A DNA stretch of 64,000 bases. Source: Candidatus Doudnabacteria bacterium. GTDB lineage: Bacteria > Patescibacteriota > Doudnabacteria > UBA920. Where the stretch lies: NCBI GenBank assembly GCA_963837465.1, contig CAWINB010000004.1, positions 330,853-394,852 of the forward strand, given 5' to 3'. Positions 678-31,717 of the stretch are shown here, piece by piece. Positions within the stretch are counted from its first letter, which is position 1; each line of letters opens with the position of its first letter. The notes below the pieces were generated by a model. The model was not told the origin of the DNA and ran no database searches. It saw only the letters and a program-made list of their open reading frames with translations. The position numbers were made by a program, and so were the translations under genes.

Positions 678-854
678 CACAATTTAATTGCCTAAACCTA
701 TAGCAATATGGGCATGGCATAAAACCCTTGAGAGATACTGAACCCCGCGTTCAGCGTCCTCTCAAGGTCTTGCTCGGAAACGGGTATGTGGCCGCAAGGC
801 CTCGTTGACACGGGGCTTTGTGTAAGCAAAATTATTAAGAATTAAAAAAACCAA
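678..854 (+). ncRNA. Candidate structured 5' leader RNA upstream of the bPH_2 membrane protein gene
   Basis: Extended -10 tgttataat at 664-672. Nested hairpin 726-767 (ccttgaga/tctcaagg enclosing ctgaa/ttcag). GAAA-capped hairpin at 773-784 and GCAA-capped hairpin at 790-801. Confidence 0.2.
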
Positions 855-14173: not shown

Positions 14174-15578
14174 ACATGGCCCCTATCCGCCAGCGGCCAT
14201 TTTTTGATGTTCCTTAAGTTTAATGTTTTTAAATACTGCTGACTTTGCTTCCTGCATAAGTTTTGCCCATCCGTTATGGCTGTGGCCGGTGCTGATGTCA
14301 TCCAGTTGTTTTTCCGTCCGTCCTGGGGCAAGGTAGCGTGTCCAATTATCCAGAGTCTTCAGTTTGGCATAGGGAGTTAAGTAAATATCATATTTTTTCT
14401 TTTCCTTGCCCTTATGGTCAACCGTGGTGGTGGCAAAGCCGCAGGGTCTGTGGAAGTTCAGGTAAGGGTTAAAAAACTTCTGGTAAAATTCGTTAATCTC
14501 CTGCGCGTAGGTTTTCGGGATATGAGTGTAGCCCATATACTTTCTGATGACACTGCCGTTCTTGCTTTCCACTAAGGCATTGTCATTGCAGTGCCTGCTT
14601 CGTGATTTTGTCTGTTTAATAACTAACCTTCTAAGAATATCAGCTACCGTGTAATTAATGTTCTCGCTACCGTTGTCAGAGTGGAAGTTAATTACTGTAA
14701 AGGGAAACATTTGCTGCAACTGTTCAAATATGGGTTTTAAATGCAGCTCGGAAATCGTTTCCACACAGAAGACCATTTCCCATTGGGTGACTTCATCCAC
14801 CAGGTTTAAGTGGTAAATACCTTTCTCATACTTGCCCAAAGCCAGCTTACGGTCGCCCTGATGCACGGTATCCACCCGCAGATAGCCCGGAATGCCCATA
14901 TTGTCGGGTCTTCTTCTAATACCAATCGGGGTGCTTACTGGATCGGTTATGGTAAAGGTGGTGGAGTGGCTGGTGTAAATTCTTTTAACTCGCAGATTGT
15001 AGATATGGGAAACGGAAATATCTTTTAGTCTTTTAAACCGTTCGTCACCGAATATTTCATATTCAGCCATTAGGATCTGTTTGGTGGCATGGGCATTCAT
15101 TCGTTGGTGCAGATTATCGGTTTCAGCCAGCAATAGTATTTCTGCCGGGCCATAAACAGTAACAAACCGGTTTTTCTTGCCCCAATTCGGGGACAAGGCC
15201 ACTAACCCACTTCCTCTCTTGTTGGTAATCAGTCGTTTTAGCTGTCTGCCCGACATGCCGGTCATCCGTTGGATATATTCCTTAATCTGCCCCTTGTCTT
15301 TTTTGCCTTTAAGCCGGACATAGCCAAACTTGTTTAAGACGTTGTTAATCCATTCATATTTCTCCTTTCTGGAAACTGAGGTAAAATTAATTGCTGTATT
15401 GACCTTTAGAAATTCCTTGATTTGAGCTATGCTCGTAACGCTTAAGTCTGTCATATCGATTGTCATCAAGTCAGTGTGGCAGGCTTATGCTCTTTGTACA
15501 GCTTCCGGGCAACCCTCCGGTTTCAGCAATTGGGGTACCGTCCTCCTTTAGAGGCTGTCTCAAAGATAGGGGCCATGT
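14174..15578 (-). mobile_element. Insertion sequence encoding an rve-type DDE transposase, just upstream of the rRNA promoter
   Basis: 14-bp terminal inverted repeat, acatggcccctatc (14174-14187) / gataggggccatgt (15565-15578), bracketing a 428-aa transposase ORF. I saw no clear target duplication. Confidence 0.5.
14183..15469 (-). CDS. DDE (integrase-core, rve) transposase
   Basis: GYLRVDTVHQGD...GIYHLNLVDEVTQ...HSDNGSENIN...NDNALVESKNG is the DDE integrase-core pattern. The family (IS481 or ISNCY-like) cannot be settled by eye. Confidence 0.75.
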   Translation of the reverse strand: MMTIDMTDLSVTSIAQIKEFLKVNTAINFTSVSRKEKYEWINNVLNKFGYVRLKGKKDKGQIKEYIQRMTGMSGRQLKRLITNKRGSGLVALSPNWGKKNRFVTVYGPAEILLLAETDNLHQRMNAHATKQILMAEYEIFGDERFKRLKDISVSHIYNLRVKRIYTSHSTTFTITDPVSTPIGIRRRPDNMGIPGYLRVDTVHQGDRKLALGKYEKGIYHLNLVDEVTQWEMVFCVETISELHLKPIFEQLQQMFPFTVINFHSDNGSENINYTVADILRRLVIKQTKSRSRHCNDNALVESKNGSVIRKYMGYTHIPKTYAQEINEFYQKFFNPYLNFHRPCGFATTTVDHKGKEKKKYDIYLTPYAKLKTLDNWTRYLAPGRTEKQLDDISTGHSHNGWAKLMQEAKSAVFKNIKLKEHQKMAAGG

Positions 15579-15599
15579 TCCATTGTATAAGACTGGCGC

Positions 15600-15628
15600 T
15601 TGACACCTTTTTCCAAAAGGTTTATAAT
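15600..15628 (+). promoter_or_regulatory. Consensus sigma70-type promoter, probable rRNA promoter
   Basis: TTGACA (15600-15605), a 17-nt spacer, TATAAT (15623-15628). It starts 22 nt outside the IS end and lies about 670 nt upstream of the 16S. Confidence 0.5.
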
Positions 15629-16293
15629 TGCTTGGCGGTTAGGAATTAAATCTTAACGTTTAAAACTTCAATAAACTTTTAGTTCAATTTTGCTCTTATG
15701 TAAGCGGGCATCGCTGATTATAGGAGATCCCTATTGGCACCTGGGAGACTGGACATTATCCACATTTAAGATGGATATGTTTTTTTTAGCCTCAATTTTA
15801 GACCCTTCAGGATCAAATTATAGAGGCTAATCCGCCGAAGCCTTGGCGAAGGCTGGATAACTAAGTTTGATCGCCGATAAATCGGCACGCTACGCCAATC
15901 ATCTTGGTCAAAGCAAAGTACCTCAAAATGAGATGCTCCGCTCCGCTCAGGATGCGTTCCTACGGAACTGTACCTTAACAGTTAAATAGTGATTAGAAAA
16001 CACTGAATACCGCCCGGTATTTAGTGTGTACAAAACCATCGCGTCTTGACCTATTTAAACCAGGTTGAGATGCAATGTTTGCGTCAATTCAATATGAGTT
16101 CAATGATATTCTGTGAATAACAGAAAAATGTTTTGTTAGGTTTACATTTTACAAAAATAAATCTAACGCCAACTTAACATCAATATTTATATTCGTGTTA
16201 AGAGGTTTGTCTTTTAGACAGATCAAACTTTCAATTTTATTTCCGTCCCGCCAAAGGCTGGGACAATTCAGGATTTATAATTGATTTCTAATA

Positions 16294-17860
<1,567 letters not shown>

Positions 17861-17872
<12 letters not shown>

Positions 17873-18137
17873 AAGGAACTTTTCTTGACTACACTGGTTT
17901 TCGAACTGTGTGTCAAGACATTCTGTTGGTCGTCGTCAATTATTTCGATTTTTGACGCAATCCTTTCTCAATAAGAAACGACGTAAACGTAAGTGGTTTT
18001 GTATAGCGGTAATTCTACCCATATTTAGCAATAAATATGGGCCTGAGCGCCTTTAATGCTCGGGGTCACTATTTAGCCGTTAAAAAACGGAAATTGCAAT
18101 TAAAAAGCCTGACTTCTACTACTGAAGTGAGGCTTTT
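17861..18137 (+). other. 16S tail + trailer + terminator segment, copy S-A
   Basis: gtcactatttagccgttaa (18065-18083) pairs 18/19 with the leader ttaacagttaaatagtgat (15975-15993). tggttttgta (17994-18003) pairs with the leader tacaaaacca (16029-16038). Terminator hairpin at 18107-18137. Confidence 0.75.
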
Positions 18138-19121
18138 ATGTTTTATAAGGAAAGTGTCGTAGAAACATCTACGAAAACCGACAGTAGGGTTTTGCCATCG
18201 TCCCCGGCTGTTTACAGCCCAAAGATGAGCGAGTTGGTTGATGGGTTTTTAAAGCACGGTCAGTTTGATTTAAGCTGGTCGGCTGGGACAGTCGCAAAAT
18301 ACGGTGAGTGTTTACGGATGACTATTCGGGACATCGGCGATTTGCCGGTAAATGAAATCCGTTTGGTTCACCTTACGGAATTAAAATCTAAAATAATAAT
18401 GCGCGGAGCCGGAGAGTCCAGAGTCGGCTCAATGGTTTTTGCGTTAAAAAGTTTTTTAAAATACTGCAAGGAAATTGTGGAGTTGGATGTGCTGGACTTT
18501 AACAAGATTACCCCGCCAAAACGCCATCGCCGGGAAGTGCTGTTTTTGACCAACGAAGAAATTCAGCGGTTTGTGGATGTTATAAAAATAAAAAATACCT
18601 GGGATGGGAAAAATAAAAAGAGTTGCGTCCGAATGGATGGTCTAAGGTTCAGGGCTTTGGTAGAAGTCTTGCTTGGCAGCGGTATGAGAATATCCGAGGC
18701 GTTATCGCTTAACCGGGGTAGTATAAATTTTGAAAAGAAAGAGGCAAAAATTATCGGTAAAGGTAGCAAGGAACGCACGGTATTTTTTAACGATCGTTCG
18801 TTGGAATGGGTTAGGTATTTATTGGAAGAAAGGAAGGACAGTCACGAACCTTTATTTCTTTCCCAAAAAGGCAACAGGTGGGATAAGGGAGAAGTTAATA
18901 AACTGTTTCAGCGTTATACTAAAAAAGCGGAAATCACCAAAAAATTAACGCCCCATATTCTGCGGCATACTATGGCCACAAACTTACTTTTTAACGGTTG
19001 CCCGATTTCCCACGTCAAAGAAATTTTAGGCCATGATAGGCTGGAAACCACGTGCCGCTACTATCTGGGTTTGGACAAGAGTAAGGCCAAGGAGGCTCAC
19101 GAAAAATTCTTGAATTATTAA
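18138..19121 (+). CDS. Tyrosine recombinase/integrase, class A (copy 1)
   Basis: GMRISEALSL (R), HILRHTMATN (H-x-x-R), LGHDRLETTCRYY (H and Y). 327 aa. Paralogs at 34943 and 47997. Confidence 0.9.
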   Translation: MFYKESVVETSTKTDSRVLPSSPAVYSPKMSELVDGFLKHGQFDLSWSAGTVAKYGECLRMTIRDIGDLPVNEIRLVHLTELKSKIIMRGAGESRVGSMVFALKSFLKYCKEIVELDVLDFNKITPPKRHRREVLFLTNEEIQRFVDVIKIKNTWDGKNKKSCVRMDGLRFRALVEVLLGSGMRISEALSLNRGSINFEKKEAKIIGKGSKERTVFFNDRSLEWVRYLLEERKDSHEPLFLSQKGNRWDKGEVNKLFQRYTKKAEITKKLTPHILRHTMATNLLFNGCPISHVKEILGHDRLETTCRYYLGLDKSKAKEAHEKFLNY

Positions 19122-19159
19122 AAAAATTTATTGAATAAATAGCTCAATTTCGCTATAAT

Positions 19160-19365
19160 TAGAATAATTGAATAGGTGCCTAACCCCATGGCTAAAACTA
19201 TGGGTATGGTAGAAGTAAAGAATCCTCAGCTACGTAAAGACGGTCTCTTAACCGCTCTCGTAGCTGAGGTGCGTGCGAAAGCATGCGGTGGTGTCGAAAG
19301 GCACTGCTGCGGTTGGGAGGCCCTTTTTGTATCCAACCGCAATTTAAAAACCTCAGCTACAACAA
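19160..19365 (+). ncRNA. Candidate structured leader RNA upstream of the type III mod gene
   Basis: tataat at 19154-19159. 11-bp perfect stem cctcagctacg (19224-19234) / cgtagctgagg (19259-19269). Two adjacent GAAA-capped hairpins (cgtgc gaaa gcatg, gtgtc gaaa ggcac). gcggttgg/ccaaccgc stem. A second cctcagctac at 19351-19360, 5 nt before the ATG. Confidence 0.35.
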
Positions 19366-21255
19366 ATGAATAACAAATCACTGATTTTTGAATTGCCCAA
19401 AATTGTGGAAGAGGGCAAAAAAGAAGTTGAAAAAATATTGGAACGGCTTTCCAGTCAAAGTCGGTTAGGTTTGCAGACTAATGAGCTGGTTCTACCGGCA
19501 AAAGATAGTGGCGGGCTTTTTCGCGGGCATATAGCAGAACAGAAAAACAATGAGTGGCTGAATCGCTTAATATATGGCGATAATTTGTTAGCTATGCAGG
19601 CTTTGCTTTCCGGCGATGAGCAGAGCGGTCTTGCCAGTATGCGTGGGAAAATAGATTTAATTTACATTGATCCACCGTTTGATAGCAAAGCTGACTACCG
19701 CACAAAGGTTACCTTGCCTGGCGTGGATTTGGAGCAAAAGCCAACAGTTATAGAACAATTTGCATACGCCGATACTTGGAAAGATGGCACCGTAAGCTAT
19801 TTGAAAATGCTTTATCCTCGTCTTGCTTTAATGCGCGAGTTGCTCTCCGAACAAGGCAGTATTTATGTGCATATTGATTGGCACGTCGGGCATTATGTAA
19901 AAATTTTACTTGATGATATTTTTGGAAAAAATAATTTTAGGAACGAAATAATTTGGTGGTATCTTTGGGGAGGAAGAGGTAAGACACAATGGAATAGCAA
20001 ACATGATAATATTTTATTTTATTCCAAGGATAATAATTGGATTTTTAACTTTAAGGATGTATTAGATGATCACAATTTAATGACAGAAGGGTCAAAAAAT
20101 AGGTTGAATTACAAAGGTGCGATGGTAACTACCAAAAGCGAATCCTCAGAAATACCCGAAGATAAAGTGCTGCCTTCTGATACTTGGTATATAGCAACCA
20201 TTAATGCAATGGCAAAAGAAAAATTAAATTATGGTACTCAAAAACCAGAATCTTTGGTAGAAAAAATAATCAAAGCATCTTCAAATGAAAATTCCATTGT
20301 AGCAGATTTTTTTGCGGGGAGCGGGACAACTGGAGCGGTGGCGGAAAAACTTGGACGGAGGTGGATTATGTCGGATATTGGCAAGCCAGCGGCTTTGATA
20401 ATGCGCAAACGGTTAATTGACCAAAACGCCAAACCGTTTTTGTATCAATCCATCGGCGACTACCAAAAAGAAGCGTTTACCTCCTCAAAGTTATACCGCC
20501 GGGTTGGCGACCTGGCCCAGGTGGTATTGCAACTTTACGGCGCAATCCCTTTTACAGAAGACCAAAGCCAAATGCGAAATTTGGGGTATATAAAAGACAG
20601 TAAAACTTTGGTAATGGTGGATTCGCCGAATAAAATGACCGGCCTTGCCACGCTTAAAAAAGCGCAGGAGCTTAAAGCCAGTTTTATGGGCGGATTTAAC
20701 AAAGTGGTGGTCTTGGGCTGGAATTTTACTTTTGATATTACCGAAGCTATTCATTCGCTTAACGATAAAAGCGTGGAAGTTTTAGTTATACCCCCGGATC
20801 TGTTAGATAAGTTAAAGAGCAAAGCTGATTACAAAGACTTGATTGACAGCGGTAAAATTCGTTTTTCCTCTTTGCAATATCTGACTTTAAAACCAATTAC
20901 GGTAAAAATATTGCCGGATGATAAAGAACAGTTGCATGTTGAATTAGATAATTATGTTTTACTTTCCCCAGACAACATACCTTTGGACGAAAAGGACAAG
21001 GAAAAATTAAAAGAAGTCATTGCTAAAGATCCATTGTCTTTGGTTGAATATTGGAGCATTGATCCCGATTATGACGGAGTTACTTTTCGCAGCCTATGGC
21101 AGGATTATCGGGAAAATGAAGACAATGACGCAGAGCCTTACCATGTTGTAAAATCGGTAGATTTGACTGTCCCCAAAAAGAAAGAAAAAAGAATTGTATG
21201 CGTAAAGGTCGTGGATGTTTTTGGTTTTGAAAGTATTGCGACCGAGGAAGTTTAA
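19366..21255 (+). CDS. mod: Type III restriction-modification methyltransferase (Mod)
   Basis: [11 protein letters not shown] (motif IV) precedes [20 protein letters not shown] (motif I). 629 aa, directly upstream of res. Confidence 0.85.
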
Positions 21256-21258
21256 CAT

Positions 21259-24171
21259 ATGCCATCACCAATCAGCATAGGCACAAGGGACATTCCCTTA
21301 AAACTTGCCAAGACAATTAGTGAGAAAGTAAATTTAGCTTGGGACAGTGGAGAGTTTTTAGACAAGACCACGGCCGTTACTCAAGATTTGCTAAAATTTT
21401 GGTTTACCGAACCACACATAGAAAACCGATATATTAATTTTCACTCCGGCCAGCGCCAGGCTATTTTAAACACCATTTATTTGCACGAAATTTTAAGCAC
21501 GAAGTCCGTTAAAGATATTTACGAGAACATAGAATTTGAACTGTTGCCGGAAATAGACATAGCCGAGCTAAAAAAGCCAAAATACGAAATTCCCAAATAC
21601 GCTATTAAGATGGCAACCGGGACGGGCAAAACATGGGTGATGCACGCCTTGTTAATTTGGCAATATCTAAACGCCAAATATGAAGCCCAAAAATCAGGAA
21701 AGTTTTCCAAGAACTTTTTATTAGTCGCCCCCGGCATAATCGTCTACGAACGGCTGCTGGATGCTTATTTGGGTAAGGAAAATGAAAATCGGGAACGCCA
21801 ATTTGAGCAATCTGATTTTTACCAGTTTAAGGATTTGCTCTTGCCTCCGGCCTTTAGGGAAGAATTTTTTGGCTTTATCCAGTCGGCCGTAGCCAAGAAG
21901 CAGGACATCGGCAGCAAGGTGACTGGTGACGGCCTGATCGCCATTGCCAACTGGCATTTATTTATGGGGGAAGAAGAATCGGAAGACAAACCCGTTTCGC
22001 CATTAGACAGTCCACAACAAATCCTCAAAGACATCATGCCAATTCGGCCGGGAGTATCCGGCGGCAATTCTTTGGATGCTTTAGATAGTGCCTATTGGGG
22101 CGGCAAGGAATTGGATTATTTGGCCAATTTGCCGGATTTAGTTTGTATAAATGACGAGGCACACCACATCCACGAAAATAAAACCTACGGGGAAGTCAGC
22201 GAGGTGGAATGGCAAAAGAGCTTGAATAAAATTGCCGCCTCCAAAGGCCATAAATTCATGCAGATAGATTTTAGCGCCACCCCTTACGACGTAACCGGCA
22301 GCGGGCAAAATCGTATCAAGCATTACTTTCCCCACATCATTGTGGATTTTAAGCTAAAGACGGCCATAGACGGCGGCTTTGTAAAGACCATAGCCATAGA
22401 CAAGCGCAAGGAACTTGTGGATTTGCCTTTAGACTTTAAATCGGTACGGGACGAAAACAATACCGCTATTGCGCTCTCGGACGGGCAAAAGCTGATGATC
22501 CGTGCCGGATTAAATCGATTAAAAATTCTTGAAACGGAATTTGTTAAATTCACTAAAGATGCCGATGGGGTTTCCAATAAATATCCCAAAATGTTGATCA
22601 TGTGCGAGGATACTAAAGTTACGCCATTGGTTGAGGCTTTTTTTCTGGACGAAGGCTTAAGCGAGGACGAGGTGCTTCGGGTAGATTCCAATAAAAAAGG
22701 CGAGATACCGGAAACGGAATGGAGAGAACTTAAACAAAAATTATTTAATATTGATAAGCATGATAAGCCTAAAGTTATTATTTCCGTGCTCATGTTGCGT
22801 GAGGGTTTTGACGTAAATAATATCTGCGTTATTGTCCCGTTGCGTTCGTCCGCCGCCCCGATTTTGCTGGAACAGACTATTGGCCGTGGTTTGCGGCTGA
22901 TGTGGCGGGAGCCGGAATATCGTGAAGCCAAAATGGACAATATCCGGCAATTGATAAAAGAAAAACGGGAACCGCAAAACTTGCTGGACTTGCTGTTTAT
23001 TGTTGAGCATCCGGCGTTTTTGCAATTCTATGAGGATTTAGACAAAGAAAGCATCGTAGAAGTTGGTGACATACCAGAGGGAGGGGTGTTGGGGGAAATT
23101 ATTAAGGTTGGCTTAAAACCCGACTGGCAAAAATATGATATGTATTGGCCGATCATCTTGCGTGATGCGGAAGATGAAATGTCCGGCAGCCGTCCGCCGG
23201 TTGAAAAAATGGAAAAATTTACCGTTTATGCGTTGGAAGATTTAAAGAAGTTTTTTCATAAAGGCGGCGAAAAATTCGTGTCCGAGGAGTTAACCGTTAA
23301 AACCCGTTTTGGGGAGTACATGGTAGATGCCAGCCTGTTTACTTCCCAAAGCTATAATGAGTATTTGCAGAAAATAATCCACGCAGTAGTCAATAGGACG
23401 GCGAAGACAAGTGCACGTGGGCATAAAGTTTACCCGACGTTACAAATAAACCAACTGCAATTAGTTGAAGCTTTGGATTTTTATATCCGCAATCTGTTGT
23501 TTGGTAACTCATATGACCCGTTTGTTGATAATAATTGGAAAGTGCTTTTACTGAAGAATGGCGTTGTTACCCAGCATATCGTCAAAGAGGTGGGCAAACT
23601 AATTTTTGAAATGCAGAATAACACTACCACGAGCGAGGCATTGGTAGAAAAGCGCCATTTTGCCGAAGTGGACAGTTTGAGGATGAGGGAAAATTATTCC
23701 TTGCCGATTGTAAAAACTATTTACGAAAGATTGCGCTACCCTTCTAACAAAGGCGGTTTTGAAAAAGACTTTTTAAGCTATGCGGATGGCGACGGGCAGG
23801 TGGAGGCGATAATTAAAATCGAAGAATACCAGCACACCTTTGCCGTTATCAACTATATGCGTTCCGATGGTTTTCTCGCCCAATACCACCCGGACTTTTT
23901 AGTGCAGGCGGTCAATAAAATCTATGTTATTGAAACAAAAGCCGACAAAGACATTGACGATAAAAATGTCCGGCAAAAGCAGCTGGCTACGCTGGATTGG
24001 ATTAAGCGGATCAACGGGTTAAAAACCGAAGACAGATTAAAAAAAGAATGGGAATATGTTTTGCTAGGTCAAAGCAATTTTTACGGTTTAAGCAAAAACG
24101 GGGCTTCCATAACTGAAATTTGCGAATTAGCCAAGGTTAGCGAGGCTGCGGTGACCGGCAGGCTACTTTAG
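21259..24171 (+). CDS. res: Type III restriction enzyme Res subunit (helicase-nuclease)
   Basis: Walker A MATGTGKT, DEAH box NDEAHHI, helicase C motifs (VLMLREGFDV, QTIGRGLR). 970 aa. Confidence 0.85.
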   Translation: MPSPISIGTRDIPLKLAKTISEKVNLAWDSGEFLDKTTAVTQDLLKFWFTEPHIENRYINFHSGQRQAILNTIYLHEILSTKSVKDIYENIEFELLPEIDIAELKKPKYEIPKYAIKMATGTGKTWVMHALLIWQYLNAKYEAQKSGKFSKNFLLVAPGIIVYERLLDAYLGKENENRERQFEQSDFYQFKDLLLPPAFREEFFGFIQSAVAKKQDIGSKVTGDGLIAIANWHLFMGEEESEDKPVSPLDSPQQILKDIMPIRPGVSGGNSLDALDSAYWGGKELDYLANLPDLVCINDEAHHIHENKTYGEVSEVEWQKSLNKIAASKGHKFMQIDFSATPYDVTGSGQNRIKHYFPHIIVDFKLKTAIDGGFVKTIAIDKRKELVDLPLDFKSVRDENNTAIALSDGQKLMIRAGLNRLKILETEFVKFTKDADGVSNKYPKMLIMCEDTKVTPLVEAFFLDEGLSEDEVLRVDSNKKGEIPETEWRELKQKLFNIDKHDKPKVIISVLMLREGFDVNNICVIVPLRSSAAPILLEQTIGRGLRLMWREPEYREAKMDNIRQLIKEKREPQNLLDLLFIVEHPAFLQFYEDLDKESIVEVGDIPEGGVLGEIIKVGLKPDWQKYDMYWPIILRDAEDEMSGSRPPVEKMEKFTVYALEDLKKFFHKGGEKFVSEELTVKTRFGEYMVDASLFTSQSYNEYLQKIIHAVVNRTAKTSARGHKVYPTLQINQLQLVEALDFYIRNLLFGNSYDPFVDNNWKVLLLKNGVVTQHIVKEVGKLIFEMQNNTTTSEALVEKRHFAEVDSLRMRENYSLPIVKTIYERLRYPSNKGGFEKDFLSYADGDGQVEAIIKIEEYQHTFAVINYMRSDGFLAQYHPDFLVQAVNKIYVIETKADKDIDDKNVRQKQLATLDWIKRINGLKTEDRLKKEWEYVLLGQSNFYGLSKNGASITEICELAKVSEAAVTGRLL

Positions 24172-24192
24172 CATTATGGATTGTAAAAATTT

Positions 24193-24369
24193 ATGTCACA
24201 TGAAGATTTAGACATTGACGAGTTCAAAAGAATTTTTGGAAAGTATTATGACAAGCCGCTTTCCGACCAAGATGCATATGAAGGCGCTTATGATTTGCTT
24301 AACGCTTTTAAATGGTTAGTAGATCAGGACGAAAGCAACAATCTAAAAATTCAGCCAAAAACTAGATGA
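24193..24369 (+). CDS. Small hypothetical protein, paralog 1 of a three-member family
   Basis: 58-aa ORF not in the track: MSHEDLDIDEFKRIFGKYYDKPLSDQDAYEGAYDLLNAFKWLV... It aligns with the next two small ORFs. Confidence 0.4.
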   Translation: MSHEDLDIDEFKRIFGKYYDKPLSDQDAYEGAYDLLNAFKWLVDQDESNNLKIQPKTR

Positions 24370-24533
24370 TTTCTCAAGAAGCGTTAGAAAAATATAAGGC
24401 TATTTACAAGGAAGAGTATGGTGCGGATATTTCAGACGCAGAAGCCTTGGATTTGGCCGTCAATCTTTTAACAATGATGAACGCAGTATATCGGCCGATA
24501 AAAAAAGAATGGGCTGAAGATGCTGACCTTTGA
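24366..24533 (+). CDS. Small hypothetical protein, paralog 2
   Basis: 55-aa ORF: MISQEALEKYKAIYKEEYGADISDAEALDLAVNLLTMMNAVYRPIKKEW... Its start overlaps the previous stop (ATGA). Confidence 0.45.
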   Translation: MISQEALEKYKAIYKEEYGADISDAEALDLAVNLLTMMNAVYRPIKKEWAEDADL

Positions 24534-24560
24534 ATTTAACAATCAAATTTAGATAAATTT

Positions 24561-24698
24561 ATGAAGGTATTTATTAGGTTAGTGTTAGGCTTAGTGGCAT
24601 TATTGTTTATAACTTTTATGTCGGCTGCTTTTGGGATAGGCGGGTTTTTGTTCACGCTCGGTTTGTTTGCGGTTATAGTTTATGCTTTTGCTAGGTAG
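24561..24698 (+). CDS. Small hydrophobic peptide
   Basis: 45-aa ORF: MKVFIRLVLGLVALLFITFMSAAFGIGGFLFTLGLFAVIVYAFAR, with two predicted helices. Confidence 0.3.
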   Translation: MKVFIRLVLGLVALLFITFMSAAFGIGGFLFTLGLFAVIVYAFAR

Positions 24699-24707
24699 CT
24701 ATTTTTT

Positions 24708-24893
24708 ATGATTTCAAAAGAGCATCTTGAAAAATATAAACAGATTTATAAAAACCGTTTTGGGAAAGAATTATCTAACCAAGAGGCTCTTGAGCAGGCC
24801 ACTAAGTTGCTTAGGTTAATAGAAATTATTTACCATCCCATGACCCAGGAAGAGCTGGATATGGTTAATAGGCGGAGACAGGAATTGGGTTAA
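24708..24893 (+). CDS. Small hypothetical protein, paralog 3
   Basis: 61 aa: MISKEHLEKYKQIYKNRFGKELSNQEALEQATKLLRLIEIIYHPM... It shares the LEKYK.IY....G...S..EAL pattern with paralog 2. Confidence 0.5.
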   Translation: MISKEHLEKYKQIYKNRFGKELSNQEALEQATKLLRLIEIIYHPMTQEELDMVNRRRQELG

Positions 24894-24980
24894 AAAGCTT
24901 TGACTAAAGTTTGCCATCACAAAGCTTGGAATTTTGCTATAATTAAGAGGCACAAAGCCTCTTTTAATTTAACCCCCTCT

Positions 24981-26114
24981 ATGAACTATATCGAAGATTG
25001 GAAATTATATCTTTGGAAAAAACTGTTGCTGAAATCTGATTATTTCAGCCAGCAAAACCTTAACCTATTTCAGGCTATCCGTAATTTTGTATTTGGCCAG
25101 GACTGGGGCGGAACTGTAGGCAACGATTTGATAGCACAAGCATTAATTGAAATGAGCAATTTTCAGCCGCCCGCTGTTGAGATTACCAACGTTAGGATGT
25201 TAAAAGATTACCGAGATTACCATTACAAGAGATTGTCTGAAGAAGAAGCAAAAAAGGCGCTCGCGGCTGCCACAAGCTCAAGCTATACAAATCCAAATTC
25301 CAAAACCGTCCACGTTGTTTTGCAGCCCAACCACGGATTGCCTAAAGAAGTAGACCAGAAGCTGGAGAAACTTGAGAAGGACAAAAATCTGGCTGACTTA
25401 GATTTGGCGGACTTAAAAACGATGGCCTATAATGCCAAGCTCCCTCAATACTTATGGAATTACGTTAGCTTTGATGCGAAATTCCACAAAGAGCCTTTAG
25501 AAAAAAAGCTAAACGATTACATCGACTCTTTTATCCAAGGGGATTTGGTAGCGCCAAGGGGTTTTAGACTTTACGGCCCAAGACAGCAGATGGAGAGAAT
25601 GTGGCAAACTATACAGGTATTAGCGACTGGTCAGGGCTCGAAAAACCTCAAAGTTACTTTGCGGGACATTGTGCCGCCGGGACGTAGCCCAGTAAATGAG
25701 CATAATCTCTATAAATTTTATGAAATGATACTGGCTTTGGAGCGCAGTGGCGACATCACAGTTACTGATATAGTCGGCTCCGAGGCAGTTATTTCCATAG
25801 CCCCAAGGCATTTAAAAAATCTCGACCCGGACTTAAGGATACCCCCTGCTTTTGCTAAATTTGAAGGCAAGTTTGTCGAACATGAACTTCATTGGTATTG
25901 CCCTATATGCGGCAACAAGATTAAAGTCTTTGAGGACAAAGACACGCTGGCGGAAACCCTTACTATCCGCACCAAACGCTGTAAAAACGGCCACGAAAAC
26001 AAAATAATGATTATCGATGATAAGCTGTATTTGGAAAATACGCCCATTGCCGTTTCAGAAGCAATGGCACACTTTAAGCGCAGGAATAAAGTCCAAAAAC
26101 CAGATGGCGTTTGA
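24981..26114 (+). CDS. Hypothetical protein with a C-terminal zinc ribbon
   Basis: The first ATG at 24981 is preferred. C-terminal CPICGNK...CKNGH Cys/His pairs. Confidence 0.45.
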   Translation: MNYIEDWKLYLWKKLLLKSDYFSQQNLNLFQAIRNFVFGQDWGGTVGNDLIAQALIEMSNFQPPAVEITNVRMLKDYRDYHYKRLSEEEAKKALAAATSSSYTNPNSKTVHVVLQPNHGLPKEVDQKLEKLEKDKNLADLDLADLKTMAYNAKLPQYLWNYVSFDAKFHKEPLEKKLNDYIDSFIQGDLVAPRGFRLYGPRQQMERMWQTIQVLATGQGSKNLKVTLRDIVPPGRSPVNEHNLYKFYEMILALERSGDITVTDIVGSEAVISIAPRHLKNLDPDLRIPPAFAKFEGKFVEHELHWYCPICGNKIKVFEDKDTLAETLTIRTKRCKNGHENKIMIIDDKLYLENTPIAVSEAMAHFKRRNKVQKPDGV

Positions 26115-26376
26115 CAGTAAGTTATTTTGGGTGTAAAATGTAAGCAGTTAATCTTTTACAATTTAATTGTTTCGCCTTATCGGTCTTGCCAGGCGGCGAG
26201 AGGTAAGGAAGGAATGATTATCCAAAACTTTTTAGACGGTTATACCCAAAGCTATTTGGCTCTGCCAGGAGGCGGAGGAGTAAGCGAGTAAGTATAACGC
26301 CATTAAGCCAAGATAATAGAAAAATCGGACCGTTGATTCGGCCTGGTCTTCTTGTTATTTTGGCTTTTTTCGTTTG

Positions 26377-26405
26377 ACCAGCGCTTTTAACGGCGCTGGT
26401 TTTTG
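26377..26405 (+). terminator. Rho-independent terminator
   Basis: accagcgc ttttaacg gcgctggt followed by tttt. Confidence 0.6.
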
Positions 26406-26425
26406 CGTTTTACGCAAGAAAATGG

Positions 26426-26502
26426 GGCAATTAGGTTGCTGCCTTGGGATCTGGTTTGCTCATAGAGGGGTTATCCTGAAACCGGGCAGCACCCTAATTG
26501 CC
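26426..26502. repeat. Long hairpin upstream of the 393-aa ORF
   Basis: ggcaattaggttgctgcc (26426-26443) pairs 17/18 with ggcagcaccctaattgcc (26485-26502). The loop is 41 nt. Confidence 0.6.
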
Positions 26503-26524
26503 TCTAAATAATCAAAATCCCTCT

Positions 26525-27703
26525 ATGATGATTGACAGTATACGTCTAAGAATTTCTATATTTAGTAGCGTGAAAAATAACTTCTTTTTTAGAGAAAAAA
26601 GAGGGAGCCTTGATTATGATAATAGTAATAGACAGAGGGTTAAACAATTTATACGAACCAATTTTAAGTGGAGCGAACAACAACGGTCTCAGGGTAAATA
26701 TATCCCAAAATATTGGACAGAAACCAACAGCTTTGAGGGCGGTAAACAGTATCTTATTTTTGAATTTTCAGTTCCAAAGTTCTTGCAGGGACATAATTTA
26801 GTCGAAATTGCAGAAACCATGCTGCCTGTCTTGGTGGATCGTCTCGAGGACTTCTGTAAAATAATTCAACTATCAGTTGCGGAGGTAGATATTTTGGGTG
26901 CGCAAGTCACGATGGTCGCATATTGTCATAATGTTCCGATAGCCCATCTGGCTCCTTCGCAAGAAGTTATGAAATTGTTATCTGGATATACCTATCGTTT
27001 TCGTTCTAAATTTCGGCCCGAGCAAAATGAATTGGGACAGATTACTCATTTACAACTCGGTAATAATACTTCCCATGTTACTGCTTATGATAAGTTGCCG
27101 GAGATTATAGTGCATGCCCGAACTACTGAGGAATTGGAAATTGCCAAAATAATTAAAAATAAACAGTTGCCAAATCCTTACGGAAAAATTATTCAAGACA
27201 CCATTAGGTTTGAGCTCACTTTACATAATACTGTGTCGGTAAGGCAAGCAATGAAAAAATTTTATGGTGACAAGCCTTTTTACACACTCAAGGATGTGTT
27301 CAAAGCCGATATTGCGGCGGCATTATTAAAGTTGGAAATGGAGGAAATTTATAATCACCCCCTTAAAAATATAGCTGCAAATTCTAATTATGACTTCCGA
27401 AAACTAAATGATGAGGTCGGTAAATTTATTCGAGACCGCCATCAGGACGGCAAACTGATTGGCTTGCTGGAACAGGCCACCCTTGTTCTACACGCCGGGG
27501 GCTGGGCGGCGGTCAGAACTTATTTAGCGAAAGGTTGTTGCCGCCGGACTTTGCAATACCGGATAGCTGAACTACGCGAAATAGAAAAAATTGGAATTAA
27601 TTTGGGAACGCCAAATGAAAAAATTATGGAATATATTTTAAACCAATTTGGCATTGGAAAAACTAATTTACTTCCTAAAGGCCAACAATTATTGTTTAGC
27701 TAA
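26525..27703 (+). CDS. Hypothetical protein (weak suspicion of a replication initiator)
   Basis: 392 aa. The N-terminus MMIDSIRLRI recalls the MIDW... start of gene II/X-type replication proteins. I could confirm no catalytic motif. Confidence 0.4.
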   Translation: MMIDSIRLRISIFSSVKNNFFFREKRGSLDYDNSNRQRVKQFIRTNFKWSEQQRSQGKYIPKYWTETNSFEGGKQYLIFEFSVPKFLQGHNLVEIAETMLPVLVDRLEDFCKIIQLSVAEVDILGAQVTMVAYCHNVPIAHLAPSQEVMKLLSGYTYRFRSKFRPEQNELGQITHLQLGNNTSHVTAYDKLPEIIVHARTTEELEIAKIIKNKQLPNPYGKIIQDTIRFELTLHNTVSVRQAMKKFYGDKPFYTLKDVFKADIAAALLKLEMEEIYNHPLKNIAANSNYDFRKLNDEVGKFIRDRHQDGKLIGLLEQATLVLHAGGWAAVRTYLAKGCCRRTLQYRIAELREIEKIGINLGTPNEKIMEYILNQFGIGKTNLLPKGQQLLFS

Positions 27704-27916
27704 TTTATATGCAACTGCCATGTTTATCTATAGCCAACAAAAACCATACAGTCTATGCGTCTTTTGTCTCCCTAAGTATTACGTCAATACACGTGCAATC
27801 TTTTGCACATTTTCACAGAGAATAATTGTGCAAGTTATAAAGCGCAGCTTAGGCAATATATGTGCAATCGCAAAAAGCCAAAATGTTACAAATCAATGAC
27901 TGAATAAAGTTGTCTC

Positions 27917-28885
27917 ATGAGCCAGTTTAACCAAAACCCAGATCCTAATTTTATACAGCAGCCATCTGCTCCGGTTTTAGGTTTGCCGGTCGTAAATACC
28001 CCACAGCTTTTGACCTTTGAACAGTTGATCCCGTTGTTTGGCGATTACGTCACTTACGATTTGAATCATAGTCCTAAGACATCCAAAAAGTATGTCGAGG
28101 GGTTAAGGCATATTTTGAAAGACCTACCCTTTATAGTTTACCCCCAAGACTTAACGTTGCCGCATATTACGGAACTGAAGAAAAAAGTGCAGTTGCGTGG
28201 CGCAAAAGAGTCCCGAGTTAATAGTCTACTATTCTCATTGCGAAAATTTTTAACCTATTGTAACGAAGTCTATAAACTGGTTACAATAAATCCAAAGGAA
28301 ATTAAAGTTATGCGATTACCAAAAAGGGAAGTGGTGTTTTTGGCTCCTGCCGAAATTGAGCAATTTTTAAGCGCAATGGATACAACAACTTTGCCGGGAT
28401 TACGAATACGGACGCTTGTAGAGGTGCTACTTTCCACTGCTATGCGAATTTCCGAAGCCCTGTCGGTCAGCCGTGGGGACATTGACTGGGAGGGCAAGGA
28501 AATTGTCATTATAGGGAAAGGCAATAAGCAGCGGACGGTATTTTTAAGCGATAGGGCAATCGGTTGGCTTCAAACCTATTTACTCCGGCGTAAGGATAAT
28601 GACCCTGCTTTGTTCGTAACCTTTGGCGAACCCAAACGCTTGTCGCCTTATGACTTGTCTAAGCAGTTTAAGCACTATGCTGAAAAAGCAGGATTAAAGA
28701 AAAAAGTAACACCCCATATTTTACGCCATACGGCCGCGACAACCATGTCCCATAACGGCGCGGACATTCGTAACATTCAGCTAATTTTAGGCCATAGCGA
28801 CATTAAAACAACCGCCAAATATTACTTAGGCGTGGACAAAGAGGCTTTAAAGGAAGCCCATAAAAAGTTTCTAAAATACGATTAG
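27917..28885 (+). CDS. Tyrosine recombinase/integrase, class B (copy 1)
   Basis: AMRISEALSV, HILRHTAATTM, LGHSDIKTTAKYY. Its closest paralogs are at 39633 and the fragment at 48956-49412. Confidence 0.9.
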   Translation: MSQFNQNPDPNFIQQPSAPVLGLPVVNTPQLLTFEQLIPLFGDYVTYDLNHSPKTSKKYVEGLRHILKDLPFIVYPQDLTLPHITELKKKVQLRGAKESRVNSLLFSLRKFLTYCNEVYKLVTINPKEIKVMRLPKREVVFLAPAEIEQFLSAMDTTTLPGLRIRTLVEVLLSTAMRISEALSVSRGDIDWEGKEIVIIGKGNKQRTVFLSDRAIGWLQTYLLRRKDNDPALFVTFGEPKRLSPYDLSKQFKHYAEKAGLKKKVTPHILRHTAATTMSHNGADIRNIQLILGHSDIKTTAKYYLGVDKEALKEAHKKFLKYD

Positions 28886-29128: not shown

Positions 29129-29806
29129 ATGACGCCAATGGAAACCCCGTTGACCGTATCCACTAACAATCCCCGAGAAGGCAAACAGGGCCGGAAGTTG
29201 TATTACCGGCTCAAAACCTCAATTAAGAAATCCGGATTATTAATTGTAGCGCTTCAACCCGCGCTTGAGTTCCCCGGCACAGCGATGGAAGACGACATCG
29301 CGGCTATCTTGGTAAAGTATTCCAAGATGGCTCGTGGCATCGTTACTCCCGTCCGCGCCGAGGACACCGGCCTCATGCCCCAGGGCTATTCGGTATACCT
29401 CACGCCGCAGGGCGTTCGCAAGGATCGTCTGGAAGGCGACGTCGAGCTGGCTAATGTCGACTACATCTGCCCGTTGCGGGATGATGATGGCGACTATATC
29501 GGCGGCGAGGTAATGCTCCAGCGGTCGGTCGAACTCAAGGCCATCGGTAGCCTCGGCTACGCTTTCGCGCTTCTCAAGGCGCAGGAGCAAGGGAAGGAAA
29601 TCTTTCCTGTCGAGTCGCGCGGCAAGCATTATTTCATTATGCCGCTCACCGAGCTGCTCGGTGACGACCGTGGCCGCCGCGTGGCTTGCTTCGGCTGGCA
29701 CGGCAAGTCGCTGCGTTGGGTGCTCTTCTTCCGTTGGGTCGGCGGCGTCTTCGCTCGCCGCGGTCGGTTTGTTGTTCCCCGCGAGAAGAAGCCCTCGGTC
29801 GCTTAG
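29129..29806 (+). CDS. DGR variable (target) protein
   Basis: 225-aa ORF whose last ~50 codons are the variable repeat. The C-terminus ...ACFGWHGKSLRWVLFFRWVGGVFARRGRFVVPR parallels the TR-encoded ...AYFNWNDKSQRWVLNFNWVDNNFNRNDRFVVPR. Confidence 0.85.
   Translation: MTPMETPLTVSTNNPREGKQGRKLYYRLKTSIKKSGLLIVALQPALEFPGTAMEDDIAAILVKYSKMARGIVTPVRAEDTGLMPQGYSVYLTPQGVRKDRLEGDVELANVDYICPLRDDDGDYIGGEVMLQRSVELKAIGSLGYAFALLKAQEQGKEIFPVESRGKHYFIMPLTELLGDDRGRRVACFGWHGKSLRWVLFFRWVGGVFARRGRFVVPREKKPSVA
29654..29782 (+). repeat. DGR variable repeat (VR)
   Basis: 129 nt aligning without gaps to 30148-30276. By my hand alignment there are 26 differences, all at template adenines. Confidence 0.9.
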
Positions 29807-29853
29807 TCCCTCGGCTCTGCCGCTGGGTTCTGGACTCTTGGCGCTTCGCATTG

Positions 29854-29894
29854 CCCCGCATTTTGACTTCGGTCAGGATGCGGGGTGTTTTTTT
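29854..29894 (+). terminator. Terminator after the DGR target gene
   Basis: ccccgcat...atgcgggg stem with an inner tgac ttcg gtca, followed by a T7 run. Confidence 0.7.
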
Positions 29895-30147
29895 GTCCAA
29901 AATTTTGAAAGTTTGGTATAATTTAAGTAGATGGGATTTATGCCTGCGGTTAAGGCTTCAGGTGACCACATCTCGCATTGTTAAAAAACCAGAGTATCGG
30001 CGGCTACGGTTTCCGGTAGAGTGTTTTTTAACAAATCTTAAAAAGAAGATACTCGGTGCAAAGTATTGGCGGGCTTTAAGGCCCCAAATAAAATACAACC
30101 CCAAGAGTATTCAAGGGGTGGTGGCTTGGAATATACTTTGCATAATC

Positions 30148-30276
30148 CTGCTCGATGACAACCGTAACCGCAACGTGGCTTACTTCAACTGGAACGACAA
30201 GTCGCAGCGTTGGGTGCTCAACTTCAATTGGGTCGACAACAACTTCAATCGCAACGATCGGTTTGTTGTTCCCCGC
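30148..30276 (+). repeat. DGR template repeat (TR)
   Basis: Rich in AAC/AAT codons. Identical to the VR except at adenines. The last 19 nt (tcggtttgttgttccccgc) are A-free and identical in both copies. Confidence 0.9.
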
Positions 30277-30644
30277 TATTGTCTTCTTACTCCTCCCACA
30301 ACGGGAGGAGTTTCTTTTAATAACTGCCGCTGCCAGCCGCCAAACATTTTACCCGCGTCAACCAGAGGTGTTGAAATATCACTAAATTGTTTATTGTCTA
30401 AGGCTTTTAACTCCCAAGCCAATTGTAGGAAGTATTTAAGGGTATCAAGTTTAATGCTTGCCTTTTGAATTAAGATTGACTTGCTATCCCTTGAGGTAAA
30501 GCCCGCTGTCAGCGTTAGTTCAATAACATCGGTGAACAGGACATTGATTTTTTCAGCCAAGGAGTATTTTACCAGCTTGGGCAGGTGTGGCAGGTAGTTG
30601 TGCCAGAGTTTGTAAGCATCGGTAATTTTTTGTAATACCGGCAA
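30276..30644 (-). CDS. avd: Avd-like four-helix-bundle accessory protein
   Basis: 122 aa. The pattern KITDAYKLWHNYLPHLPKLVKYSLAEKI...LDTLKYFLQLAWELKALDNKQF fits the four-helix-bundle (23S-IVS protein/Avd) family. On the opposite strand to the TR and RT. Confidence 0.7.
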   Translation of the reverse strand: MPVLQKITDAYKLWHNYLPHLPKLVKYSLAEKINVLFTDVIELTLTAGFTSRDSKSILIQKASIKLDTLKYFLQLAWELKALDNKQFSDISTPLVDAGKMFGGWQRQLLKETPPVVGGVRRQ

Positions 30645-30662
30645 GTTGATAAAATTTCCGTT

Positions 30663-30673
30663 GGGGGGGGGGG
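30663..30673. repeat. G11 homopolymer between the avd and RT starts
   Basis: ttgggggggggggttg, counted as 11 G. Confidence 0.9.
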
Positions 30674-30703
30674 TTGTTAAAAGTCATTTTTATAAGTTTA
30701 ATT

Positions 30704-31717
30704 ATGAAAACGCAATTAAAAATAAGTTACGAGGAAATCATTTCACTCGAAAATTTGTTTGCCGCCTGGCAGGAGTTTTTGCCGGGCAAGAGAAAAAAGA
30801 AAGACGTGCAGGAATTTGGCCTTAGGCTTGCTGATAACATTTTACAGCTTCAGGAGGAACTTGCCAATTTTAGCTATATCCACGGCCCATACAAGGCCTT
30901 TAACATTTCTGACCCCAAGCCGAGGAATATCCATAAGGCAAGCGTTCGGGACAGAGTTTTACATCACGCCATTTACCGCAAACTATATCCGTTTTTCGAC
31001 AAAACTTTTATCGGCAGTTCGTATTCCTGCCGTTTGGACAAAGGAGTTCACAAGGCTTTGAATAAGTTTAGGGCATTGGCGTTTAAAGCAAGTAAAAATC
31101 ATACGCAAACAGCTTGGGTGCTCAAGTGTGATATTAAAAAGTTTTTCGCCAGCATTGACCATGCAAAACTGCTGAAAATTTTATCAGCTTACGTTCCCGA
31201 TAAAAATATTCTTTGGGTTTTAGAGCGAATTATTTATAGCTTTGATTATAAGGTAGCAGGCCGCGGCCTCCCGCTTGGCAACCTGACCTCCCAATTATTT
31301 TGCAACGTATATATGAACGAATTTGACCAATTCATAAAACACAAACTCAAGGCCAAATATTATATCCGTTATGCTGATGATTTTGTTTTTTTATCGGGTA
31401 GCAAGGACGAGCTAATATCCTTAGTTCCTAAAGTAGCCGAGTTTTTAGGAGAGGACTTAAAACTGTCTTTGCATCCGGATAAAGTTTTTATAAAGACCTT
31501 GGCCTCGGGCGTGGACTTCCTGGGCTGGGTGCATTTCCCTCATTACCGGGTTCTAAGAAAAAATACCGGCAGAAGAATGTTCAAACGAATTTACGGCCAT
31601 CCAACAAATGAAACATTCCAGTCATATTTAGGGTTAATGAGCCACGGAAATACTTACGGGCTTAAACAAAAATTGTTGAATTGGTATGGGTTACTTAAAA
31701 CAGCACAGCAGGAATAG
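30704..31717 (+). CDS. DGR-type reverse transcriptase
   Basis: RT motifs including LPLGNLTSQLFCNVYMNEFD (the DGR-typical GxxxSQ) and YADDFVF. 337 aa from the ATG at 30704. Confidence 0.9.
   Translation: MKTQLKISYEEIISLENLFAAWQEFLPGKRKKKDVQEFGLRLADNILQLQEELANFSYIHGPYKAFNISDPKPRNIHKASVRDRVLHHAIYRKLYPFFDKTFIGSSYSCRLDKGVHKALNKFRALAFKASKNHTQTAWVLKCDIKKFFASIDHAKLLKILSAYVPDKNILWVLERIIYSFDYKVAGRGLPLGNLTSQLFCNVYMNEFDQFIKHKLKAKYYIRYADDFVFLSGSKDELISLVPKVAEFLGEDLKLSLHPDKVFIKTLASGVDFLGWVHFPHYRVLRKNTGRRMFKRIYGHPTNETFQSYLGLMSHGNTYGLKQKLLNWYGLLKTAQQE

Follow-up and report, generated by a model that had tools for sequence, protein, structure and literature searches.

The window analysed here is a 64,000-nt stretch of the genome of a Candidatus Doudnabacteria bacterium (GenBank assembly GCA_963837465.1, contig CAWINB010000004.1), and the element under study is the structured leader of its type III restriction-modification genes, mod and res. 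The gene pair lies on the same strand as the leader, 35 nt past the end of the element. Covariance-model and comparative analyses identified the leader as a member of the Rfam family LOOT and suggest that it may work as a two-state switch. The features of the locus, together with a second LOOT copy, are listed below in window coordinates.

19131 to 19159 (+): sigma-70-type promoter, with TTGAAT, a 17-nt spacer and TATAAT (19154-19159); 10/12 matches in a consensus scan
19166 to 19176 (+): 5' tail aattgaatagg with the probable (inferred) transcription start, counterpart of the LOOT ACAAYT motif
19177 to 19211 (+): P1/P2 hairpin with the internal loop CCUAAC / UAUGG, aligned to positions 1-35 of the Rfam LOOT model
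19224 to 19234 (+): S (cctcagctacg), 5' strand of the P3 basal stem, which forms 11 perfect bp with 19259-19269
19235 to 19255 (+): X, top of P3, a small hairpin in the Rfam fold or the partner of X' (19309-19329)
19259 to 19269 (+): S' (cgtagctgagg), 3' strand of the P3 basal stem, partner of S or of S2
19271 to 19286 (+): P4 hairpin with a GAAA tetraloop, in the Rfam alignment
19287 to 19308 (+): P5 hairpin capped by a GAAA tetraloop, with its core at 19290-19305; 19305 is the last position covered by the Rfam model
19309 to 19329 (+): X' plus U-tract (gcggttgggaggccctttttg), which with X would form a terminator-like helix and may alternatively pair with X2
19333 to 19340 (+): X2 (ccaaccgc), partial second copy of X, alternative partner of X'
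19351 to 19360 (+): S2, which repeats the first 10 nt of S exactly and stops 5 nt short of the mod ATG
19366 to 21255 (+): mod, type III methyltransferase of 629 aa (Pfam N6_N4_Mtase, 1.5e-42), the gene served by the leader
21259 to 24171 (+): res (Pfam ResIII, 5.9e-14), downstream of mod
689 to 826 (+): second LOOT copy, with an Rfam match at 689-802 (73.7 bits) plus X' and U-tract to about 826; without S2

The first-pass annotation, made from the sequence alone, had described a structured leader with GAAA-capped hairpins and a duplicated 10-mer that could toggle access to the mod start codon. The stems, the GAAA hairpins and all three copies of the 10-mer are indeed present, the second cctcagctac copy is exact and stands 5 nt before the ATG at 19366, and the tataat box at 19154-19159 belongs to a promoter with a matching -35 element, TTGAAT. 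The 10-mer CCTCAGCTAC occurs exactly at 19224 (+), 19351 (+) and 19260-19269 (-), and the 64 kb contain no other mismatch-free site. Folding of a 216-nt stretch gave -79.8 kcal/mol as compared to -54.7 ± 4.3 kcal/mol for dinucleotide shuffles (z = -5.85), with 0 of 200 shuffles as stable. Judged from the window by itself, the 10-mer repeat is no more than suggestive, as 6 of 100 shuffles reached at least four one-mismatch sites, and its significance comes from the comparison across the LOOT family. The earlier description lacked the conserved 5' hairpin P1/P2 (19177-19211). Its stem between gcggttgg (19309-19316) and ccaaccgc (19333-19340) is present, but the stronger family-wide partner of the gcggttgg segment is the top of P3, which had been overlooked. 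The statement that mod has no obvious Shine-Dalgarno (SD) sequence is true, but this is ordinary here, since SD-like sequence was found in just 9 of the 43 window genes, although the 3' end of the 16S rRNA is canonical. At the gene starts 46125, 57679 and 61446 a TATAAT-like box lies 6-8 nt upstream, which suggests leaderless messenger RNAs.

A covariance-model search against Rfam 15, a check that the first-pass annotation had proposed without recognising the family, identified 19177-19305 as LOOT (RF03000). The match scored 60.8 bits, above the gathering score of 46.4 bits, and covered the full model (1-121 of 121), with E = 7e-11 in an 801-nt search and 5.8e-9 in the 64-kb search. The conserved P1/P2 signature CCUAA ... 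G(C/U)AUGG was found as gccuaacccc...ggguaugg at 19178-19209, and the window contains two such signature sites as compared to 0.05 expected. The long P3, the GAAA-capped P4 and the GNRA-capped P5 are all in the model alignment, where two distal P3 pairs and two P4 pairs are non-canonical. The second copy has its own promoter (TTTACA, a 16-nt spacer and TGtTATAAT), which ends 17 nt before the RNA, and precedes a gene encoding a bPH_2-domain protein (855-2057; 400 aa). No tRNA or tmRNA identity was found in the window.

Rfam types LOOT as "Gene; sRNA" and has contained it since release 14. LOOT is named as a "metagenomic-based RNA" in Rfam 14 (PMC7779021), the motif stems from the 2017 survey of Weinberg and Breaker (PMC5737381), and its alignment is noted for "28 cross-covariations" (bioRxiv 10.1101/2020.02.04.933952), a remark for which the self-complementary arrangement of X and X' may account. 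No assignment of function or host was found in the literature searched, which did not extend to the supplement of the discovery paper. The LOOT core is already catalogued; a leader role, a competing 3' helix and a repeat at the start codon were not found described within that same scope.

The family was gathered by three scans with one pattern, composed of P1/P2 plus the P4 loop. Species-representative genomes yielded 74 loci, about 65 of them true LOOTs, mostly in metagenome-assembled genomes (MAGs) of Patescibacteria (candidate phyla radiation, CPR), with hosts among Parcubacteria, Microgenomates, Saccharibacteria, Doudnabacteria and others, and metagenomes added at least 120 further loci. 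The scan of viral contigs returned 36 loci, nearly all of them coincidences in coding sequence, and LOOT is thus not noticeably phage-borne. Parsing and removal of duplicates left 147 distinct LOOTs, including that of the window, which are the basis of the family counts given below. At least 10 true LOOT matches (among L037-L110) lie in MAGs labelled Gammaproteobacteria, Bdellovibrionales, Acidobacteriota (Ca. Sulfotelmatobacter) and archaea (Pacearchaeota, Bathyarchaeia); these non-Patescibacteria labels may be binning or labelling errors. In a Candidatus Uhrbacteria MAG (L081, MGDU01000003.1, 888-3986), three tandem truncated units are followed by one full LOOT (65.4 bits). Each truncated unit consists of a promoter, P1/P2, an A-rich leader and an ATG, without P3-P5, and stands before a gene; these short units may have arisen by deletion between S-like repeats, or may represent a simpler leader of ancestral type.

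The position of LOOT relative to promoters and genes was consistent across the family. A -10-like box was found upstream in 110 of the 147 LOOTs (74.8%, as compared to 44.1% in shuffles), and an ACAAYT motif, which is probably the 5' end of the transcript, occurs 9-16 nt before LOOT in 108 of 147, about 6-7 nt after the -10 box. A complete co-directional open reading frame (ORF) lies within 120 nt downstream at 119 of 131 loci (91%), at a median distance of 29 nt, whereas the divergent-ORF control gave 51 of 124. The spacer between LOOT and ATG showed no excess of -10 boxes (38.5% vs 39.9% in shuffles), which suggests that the downstream genes rely on the promoter of LOOT. With a promoter upstream and a same-strand ORF close downstream, LOOT looks like a 5' leader and not like a free-standing small RNA (sRNA); a unit independent of its downstream gene, as a trans-acting sRNA would be, was not found. 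The downstream proteins are of unrelated accessory types, including DNA methylases, nucleases, zinc-ribbon, DUF4352 and bPH_2 proteins, small membrane or secreted proteins, and others.

Within the RNA, the columns of the P1/P2 internal loop are invariant across the 147 LOOTs except for two variable positions, which covary (A/C 114, C/U 26, C/C 6, A/U 1). The loop of P4 is nearly invariant, and its stem is paired in 95% of cells, with covariation at all 8 pairs. The basal stem of P3 (S:S') has a hypervariable sequence, with pairing kept family-wide and covarying. The 11-nt GAAA tetraloop receptor of group I and group II introns and RNase P has the form CCUAAG...UAUGG, and the P1/P2 loop of the window, CCUAAC...UAUGG, matches it at 10 of its 11 positions. 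The two are alike in that the window loop flanks a hairpin and a nearly invariant P4 GAAA loop is present in the same RNA; they are unlike in the closing G-U, which is C/U in the window and A/C in most LOOTs. On this resemblance, the CCUAAC/UAUGG loop in P1/P2 is the probable docking site for the GAAA loop of P4, a contact that would hold the parts of the RNA in place.

Beyond the end of the Rfam model, every LOOT has a segment following P5 (X') that can pair with the top of P3 (X), and the pairing includes an A/G-rich stretch with the U-rich tail. In the window, gcggttgg plus the following gggaggccctttttg is complementary to 19235-19255, with a 14-bp core that includes 3 G-U pairs; the duplex reaches -28.3 kcal/mol (RNAduplex), and X' ends CCCUUUUUG. 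The X:X' helix averages about 18 bp, with 20% G-U pairs, and because one pair in five is G-U the pairing is assigned to the RNA level, on the + strand. Cognate duplexes had a median of -24.9 kcal/mol as compared to -15.6 kcal/mol for non-cognate duplexes and -14.0 kcal/mol for shuffled X, the cognate ranking in the top 2%. On a structure-blind MAFFT alignment, 87% of the cells of the X:X' core were paired and 9 of 10 pairs had double changes (in one example, GC 40, CG 38, AU 26 and UG 20), and RNAalifold selected the helix unprompted. A G+C-rich helix followed by a CUUUUUG tail is present in every member of the family.

X follows directly on S and is separated from S' by 3 nt (linkers of 0-3 nt), and because of these short linkers a rigid X:X' helix of about 20 bp is expected to be incompatible with a closed S:S' stem. 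LOOT thus has two covarying helices, S:S' and X:X', that by geometry should largely exclude each other, which is the arrangement of an RNA switch. Over the 147 LOOTs the median energy difference between the two folds was +1.1 kcal/mol, with 40% favouring X:X' and 48% within 3 kcal/mol, and in the mod leader of the window the competing folds reach -65.4 and -65.9 kcal/mol. The X:X' duplex of the second window copy (689..826) reaches -21.5 kcal/mol. The alternative pairing of X' with X2 is frequent, not universal: the duplex has -18.1 kcal/mol in the window, and family-wide the cognate median was -11.5 kcal/mol vs -9.1 kcal/mol for non-cognate segments (p = 7e-6).

The relation among S, S' and S2 recurs in a part of the family. 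In the window the S:S' and S':S2 duplexes have -19.3 and -18.9 kcal/mol, respectively, and a fold with S':S2 forced lies 1.6 kcal/mol above the minimum-free-energy fold. Past the U-tract, an exact repeat of 10 nt or more from the 5' strand of P3 was found in 12 of 147 cognate cases vs 1 of 5803 non-cognate ones, and with G-U pairs allowed an S':S2 duplex of -14 kcal/mol or stronger was present in 14 of 147, as compared to 0.23% of non-cognate combinations. In these loci S2 ends 0-5 nt before the ATG, except in two where the ORF call failed, and the same A-run precedes S2 and S. At L050 and L144, S2 fits S' better than S does, S having a G-U pair. The S2 cases are spread across LOOT subtypes, and the 13 outside the window score 55-91 bits, all above the Rfam threshold. 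Six of the seven LOOTs directly before Mod-type methylase genes are of the S2 type (window, L043, L050, L076, L137 and L177), and their S sequences all differ. Covarying complementarity of a leader segment to the start region was therefore found in the S2 subclass and not in the remaining ~90% of LOOTs. Thus, the riboregulatory toggle put forward by the first-pass annotation is partly supported by the comparison, for the S2 subclass only; about 90% of the family, including the second copy in the window, lack S2, and the putative toggle is a feature of a subclass and not what defines LOOT RNA.

On the strength of these comparisons, it seems fairly probable that the element is a two-state 5' leader in which P3, kept or broken, acts on the transcription and translation of mod. 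In the ON state, P3 would be intact (S:S') with its top folded on itself and X' idle or paired with X2, so that polymerase would read through and leave the start region of mod, unstructured and without an SD, accessible. In the OFF state, X' would capture X to give a helix of about 20 bp ending in UUUUUG, with the shape of an intrinsic terminator, and the formation of this helix would break S:S' and free S'. In transcripts that read through, the freed S' could pair with S2 and mask the stretch that ends 5 nt ahead of the AUG; because the genome is SD-poor (9/43), a helix next to the AUG should block initiation effectively. A single decision on P3 would in this way act on both transcription and translation, and the pairing of X' with the top of P3, rather than the ccaaccgc stem, probably drives the switch. 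A protein, temperature, transcription kinetics or a ligand are possible triggers that would tip the balance. The paucity of conserved unpaired positions argues against a small-molecule pocket and, together with the unrelated nature of the downstream genes, against a metabolite tied to one pathway.

A broader proposal, held more tentatively and with rather less than even confidence, is that LOOT may be a portable and self-contained switch of Patescibacteria, made of a promoter, a compact sensor and a terminator for which the sensor itself supplies the hairpin, which would control unrelated accessory and defence genes. In this proposal the hypervariable stem of P3 would be a programmable "address": copied before a start codon, it would bring in translational control, preferentially for restriction-modification methylases. 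A test of the boundaries of such a portable unit (L074 vs L097, L101 vs L177) was uninformative.

Several observations weigh against the two-state leader. The 147-LOOT sample is biased to one sequence subtype and includes related loci, so that its counts are not independent events, and the 14 S2 cases comprise 12 distinct S sequences, among them a pair (L083/L205) with only 1 nt of difference over a shared 11-mer core. About 55 nt, with S', P4 and P5, lie between the arms of the terminator-like helix, which is atypical, and a terminator consensus scan did not call X:X' and its U-tract. The exclusivity of S:S' and full-length X:X' is a geometric argument, as nearest-neighbour folding cannot evaluate a partial pseudoknot. 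The energy balance is not universal, the second window copy favouring the P3 fold by about 11 kcal/mol. The small hairpin at the top of P3 was unconfirmed on the MAFFT alignment, where 59% of its cells were paired, no better than in a shifted register, and this is probably an alignment problem. Conserved unpaired nucleotides are few outside the receptor and the tetraloop in the 147 LOOTs, and in the ~90% of LOOTs without S2 no further cognate pairing with the start region was found (p = 0.12).

Among the other explanations, an unlikely one that still deserves some weight is that LOOT is a free-standing sRNA with its own promoter and constitutive termination at the X:X' helix and U-tract, acting in trans or in an antisense-like manner through S':S2, while the downstream gene is transcribed separately. 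The Rfam type, the strong promoter, the terminator-shaped 3' end of every member and the presence of two copies in 64 kb all fit such an RNA, but a same-strand ORF follows the U-tract at a median of 29 nt in 91% of loci and the promoter signal in the spacer is not above shuffles. In addition, S' would be locked in P3 or in a multiloop within the terminated RNA, S2 is found only on the adjacent messenger RNA, and the mutually unrelated downstream genes offer no evident common target. Somewhat less probable still is a constitutive 5' cassette, in which a promoter and a compact protective structure would stabilise or boost accessory genes and S2 would be a by-product of copying or recombination. 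The diversity of the accessory genes downstream (methylases, nucleases, small membrane and secreted proteins), the recruitment of the leader, deduced from its absence at the closest Mod homologues (70-75% identity), the three promoter plus P1/P2 units without P3-P5 at L081, and the lack of S2 in about 90% of members are compatible with a cassette of this kind, under which deletion between the direct repeats S and S2 could also yield the short promoter plus P1/P2 leaders of L081. Such a cassette, however, would have no reason to conserve two exclusive, covarying and energy-balanced helices, and S2 occurs across LOOT subclasses, always abutting the ATG, with a better fit to S' than S itself in two loci and a concentration at methylase genes (6/7).

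The remaining two explanations have little in their favour. The repeats, two direct copies and one inverted, would very improbably act at the DNA level, as sites for the adjacent tyrosine recombinase (18138-19121) or as recognition or methylation sites of Mod. The integrase gene does end 55 nt before the LOOT core (45 nt before the inferred transcription start), a second integrase gene lies at 27917-28885, and the 10-mer varies between methylase loci as a specificity site would; but the many G-U pairs of S:S' and X:X' (20% in X:X') would be mismatches in DNA and on the other strand, S is equally variable in LOOTs before non-methylase genes, and no larger inverted or direct repeats mark an invertible or excisable segment around the site. 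The chance that the 65-aa ORF at 19176-19373, whose stop overlaps the mod start, encodes a small protein with translational coupling is practically negligible. The frame exists in the window, and in another assembly automatic gene calling placed a 61-aa product on the same locus (L231, 823-1008), probably a spurious call; the ORF, however, has no Pfam match, no frame is open across the element in 94 of the 147 LOOTs, the window frame is open in 30 of 147, the lengths of the P1-P2 module are evenly spread modulo 3, and conservation tracks base pairs and not codons. The first-pass annotation had judged this ORF less convincing than the RNA, and the open-frame count and the pattern of conservation effectively refute it.

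The closest Mod homologues (70-75% identity in five look-ups, from one CPR genome and several other bacteria) have no LOOT upstream, which means that this mod-res pair acquired its leader by recruitment. The first-pass annotation had envisaged a comparison through homologous mod leaders; as the nearest homologues are without LOOT, more distant LOOT-mod pairs were used instead. In three loci with non-CPR Mod homologues of 72% identity (L234-L236), a divergent HTH_3-family gene and an SD sequence precede mod-res, again with no LOOT, and this gene is a possible controller protein. The mod-res pair of the window sits between two tyrosine recombinase genes (18138-19121 and 27917-28885), which share a 45-nt stretch with 78% identity. 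The neighbourhood also includes a Phage_CRI-like replication protein gene (26498-27703), an rve integrase gene (14183-15469, - strand) and a lone 16S rRNA gene (16287-17870), with no 23S rRNA gene called anywhere in the window. The region 14183-28885 thus bears signs of mobile DNA; flanking att-like or direct repeats of an integrated element around the leader were not found in the window. A diversity-generating retroelement lies at 29129-31717, where a 129-nt repeat at 29654-29782, the 3' end of the ORF 29129-29806, matches 30148-30276 with 26 mismatches, every one of them at an A of the second copy (17 A to G, 5 A to C and 4 A to T), followed by an RVT_1 reverse transcriptase ORF at 30674-31717.

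Compared with known systems, the window element has the same P1/P2, long P3, GAAA-capped P4 and GNRA-capped P5 as the Rfam LOOT model, which stops at P5; the promoter, the extension with X', U-tract and X2, the downstream gene in 91% of loci and the S2 of a subclass are added here. Like riboswitch and attenuator platforms, which work through terminator/antiterminator pairs, SD-sequestering helices with an anti-sequestor, or dual control of transcription and translation, LOOT has exclusive and energy-balanced helices with a U-tract after one of them, and a trio of sequestor, anti-sequestor and target at the start codon. Unlike them, it has few conserved junction nucleotides, the 5' arm of its putative terminator is part of the "sensor" hairpin some 55 nt upstream, an arbitrary, locus-specific 10-12-mer and not an SD sequence would be sequestered, and the genes that it would control are functionally unrelated. 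As in the control of restriction-modification genes by C proteins, antisense RNAs or phase-variable mod genes (phasevarions), a dedicated element stands before mod-res, but here it is based on RNA structure, with no simple-sequence repeats and no evident regulator gene. No papers on regulatory RNA of Patescibacteria/CPR were found in the literature search.

These results give the orphan LOOT family a testable mechanism. They are also of practical use for annotation, as gene callers place a spurious protein of 61-65 aa over the LOOT RNA. The association of S2 with mod suggests an RNA-based control of methylase and nuclease expression on mobile elements. If the broader proposal of a portable switch is true, LOOT would be a widespread class of regulatory RNA in a major bacterial lineage. 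In CPR bacteria, which have small genomes and poorly known regulation, a leader standing before many accessory genes would be one of the main regulatory devices.

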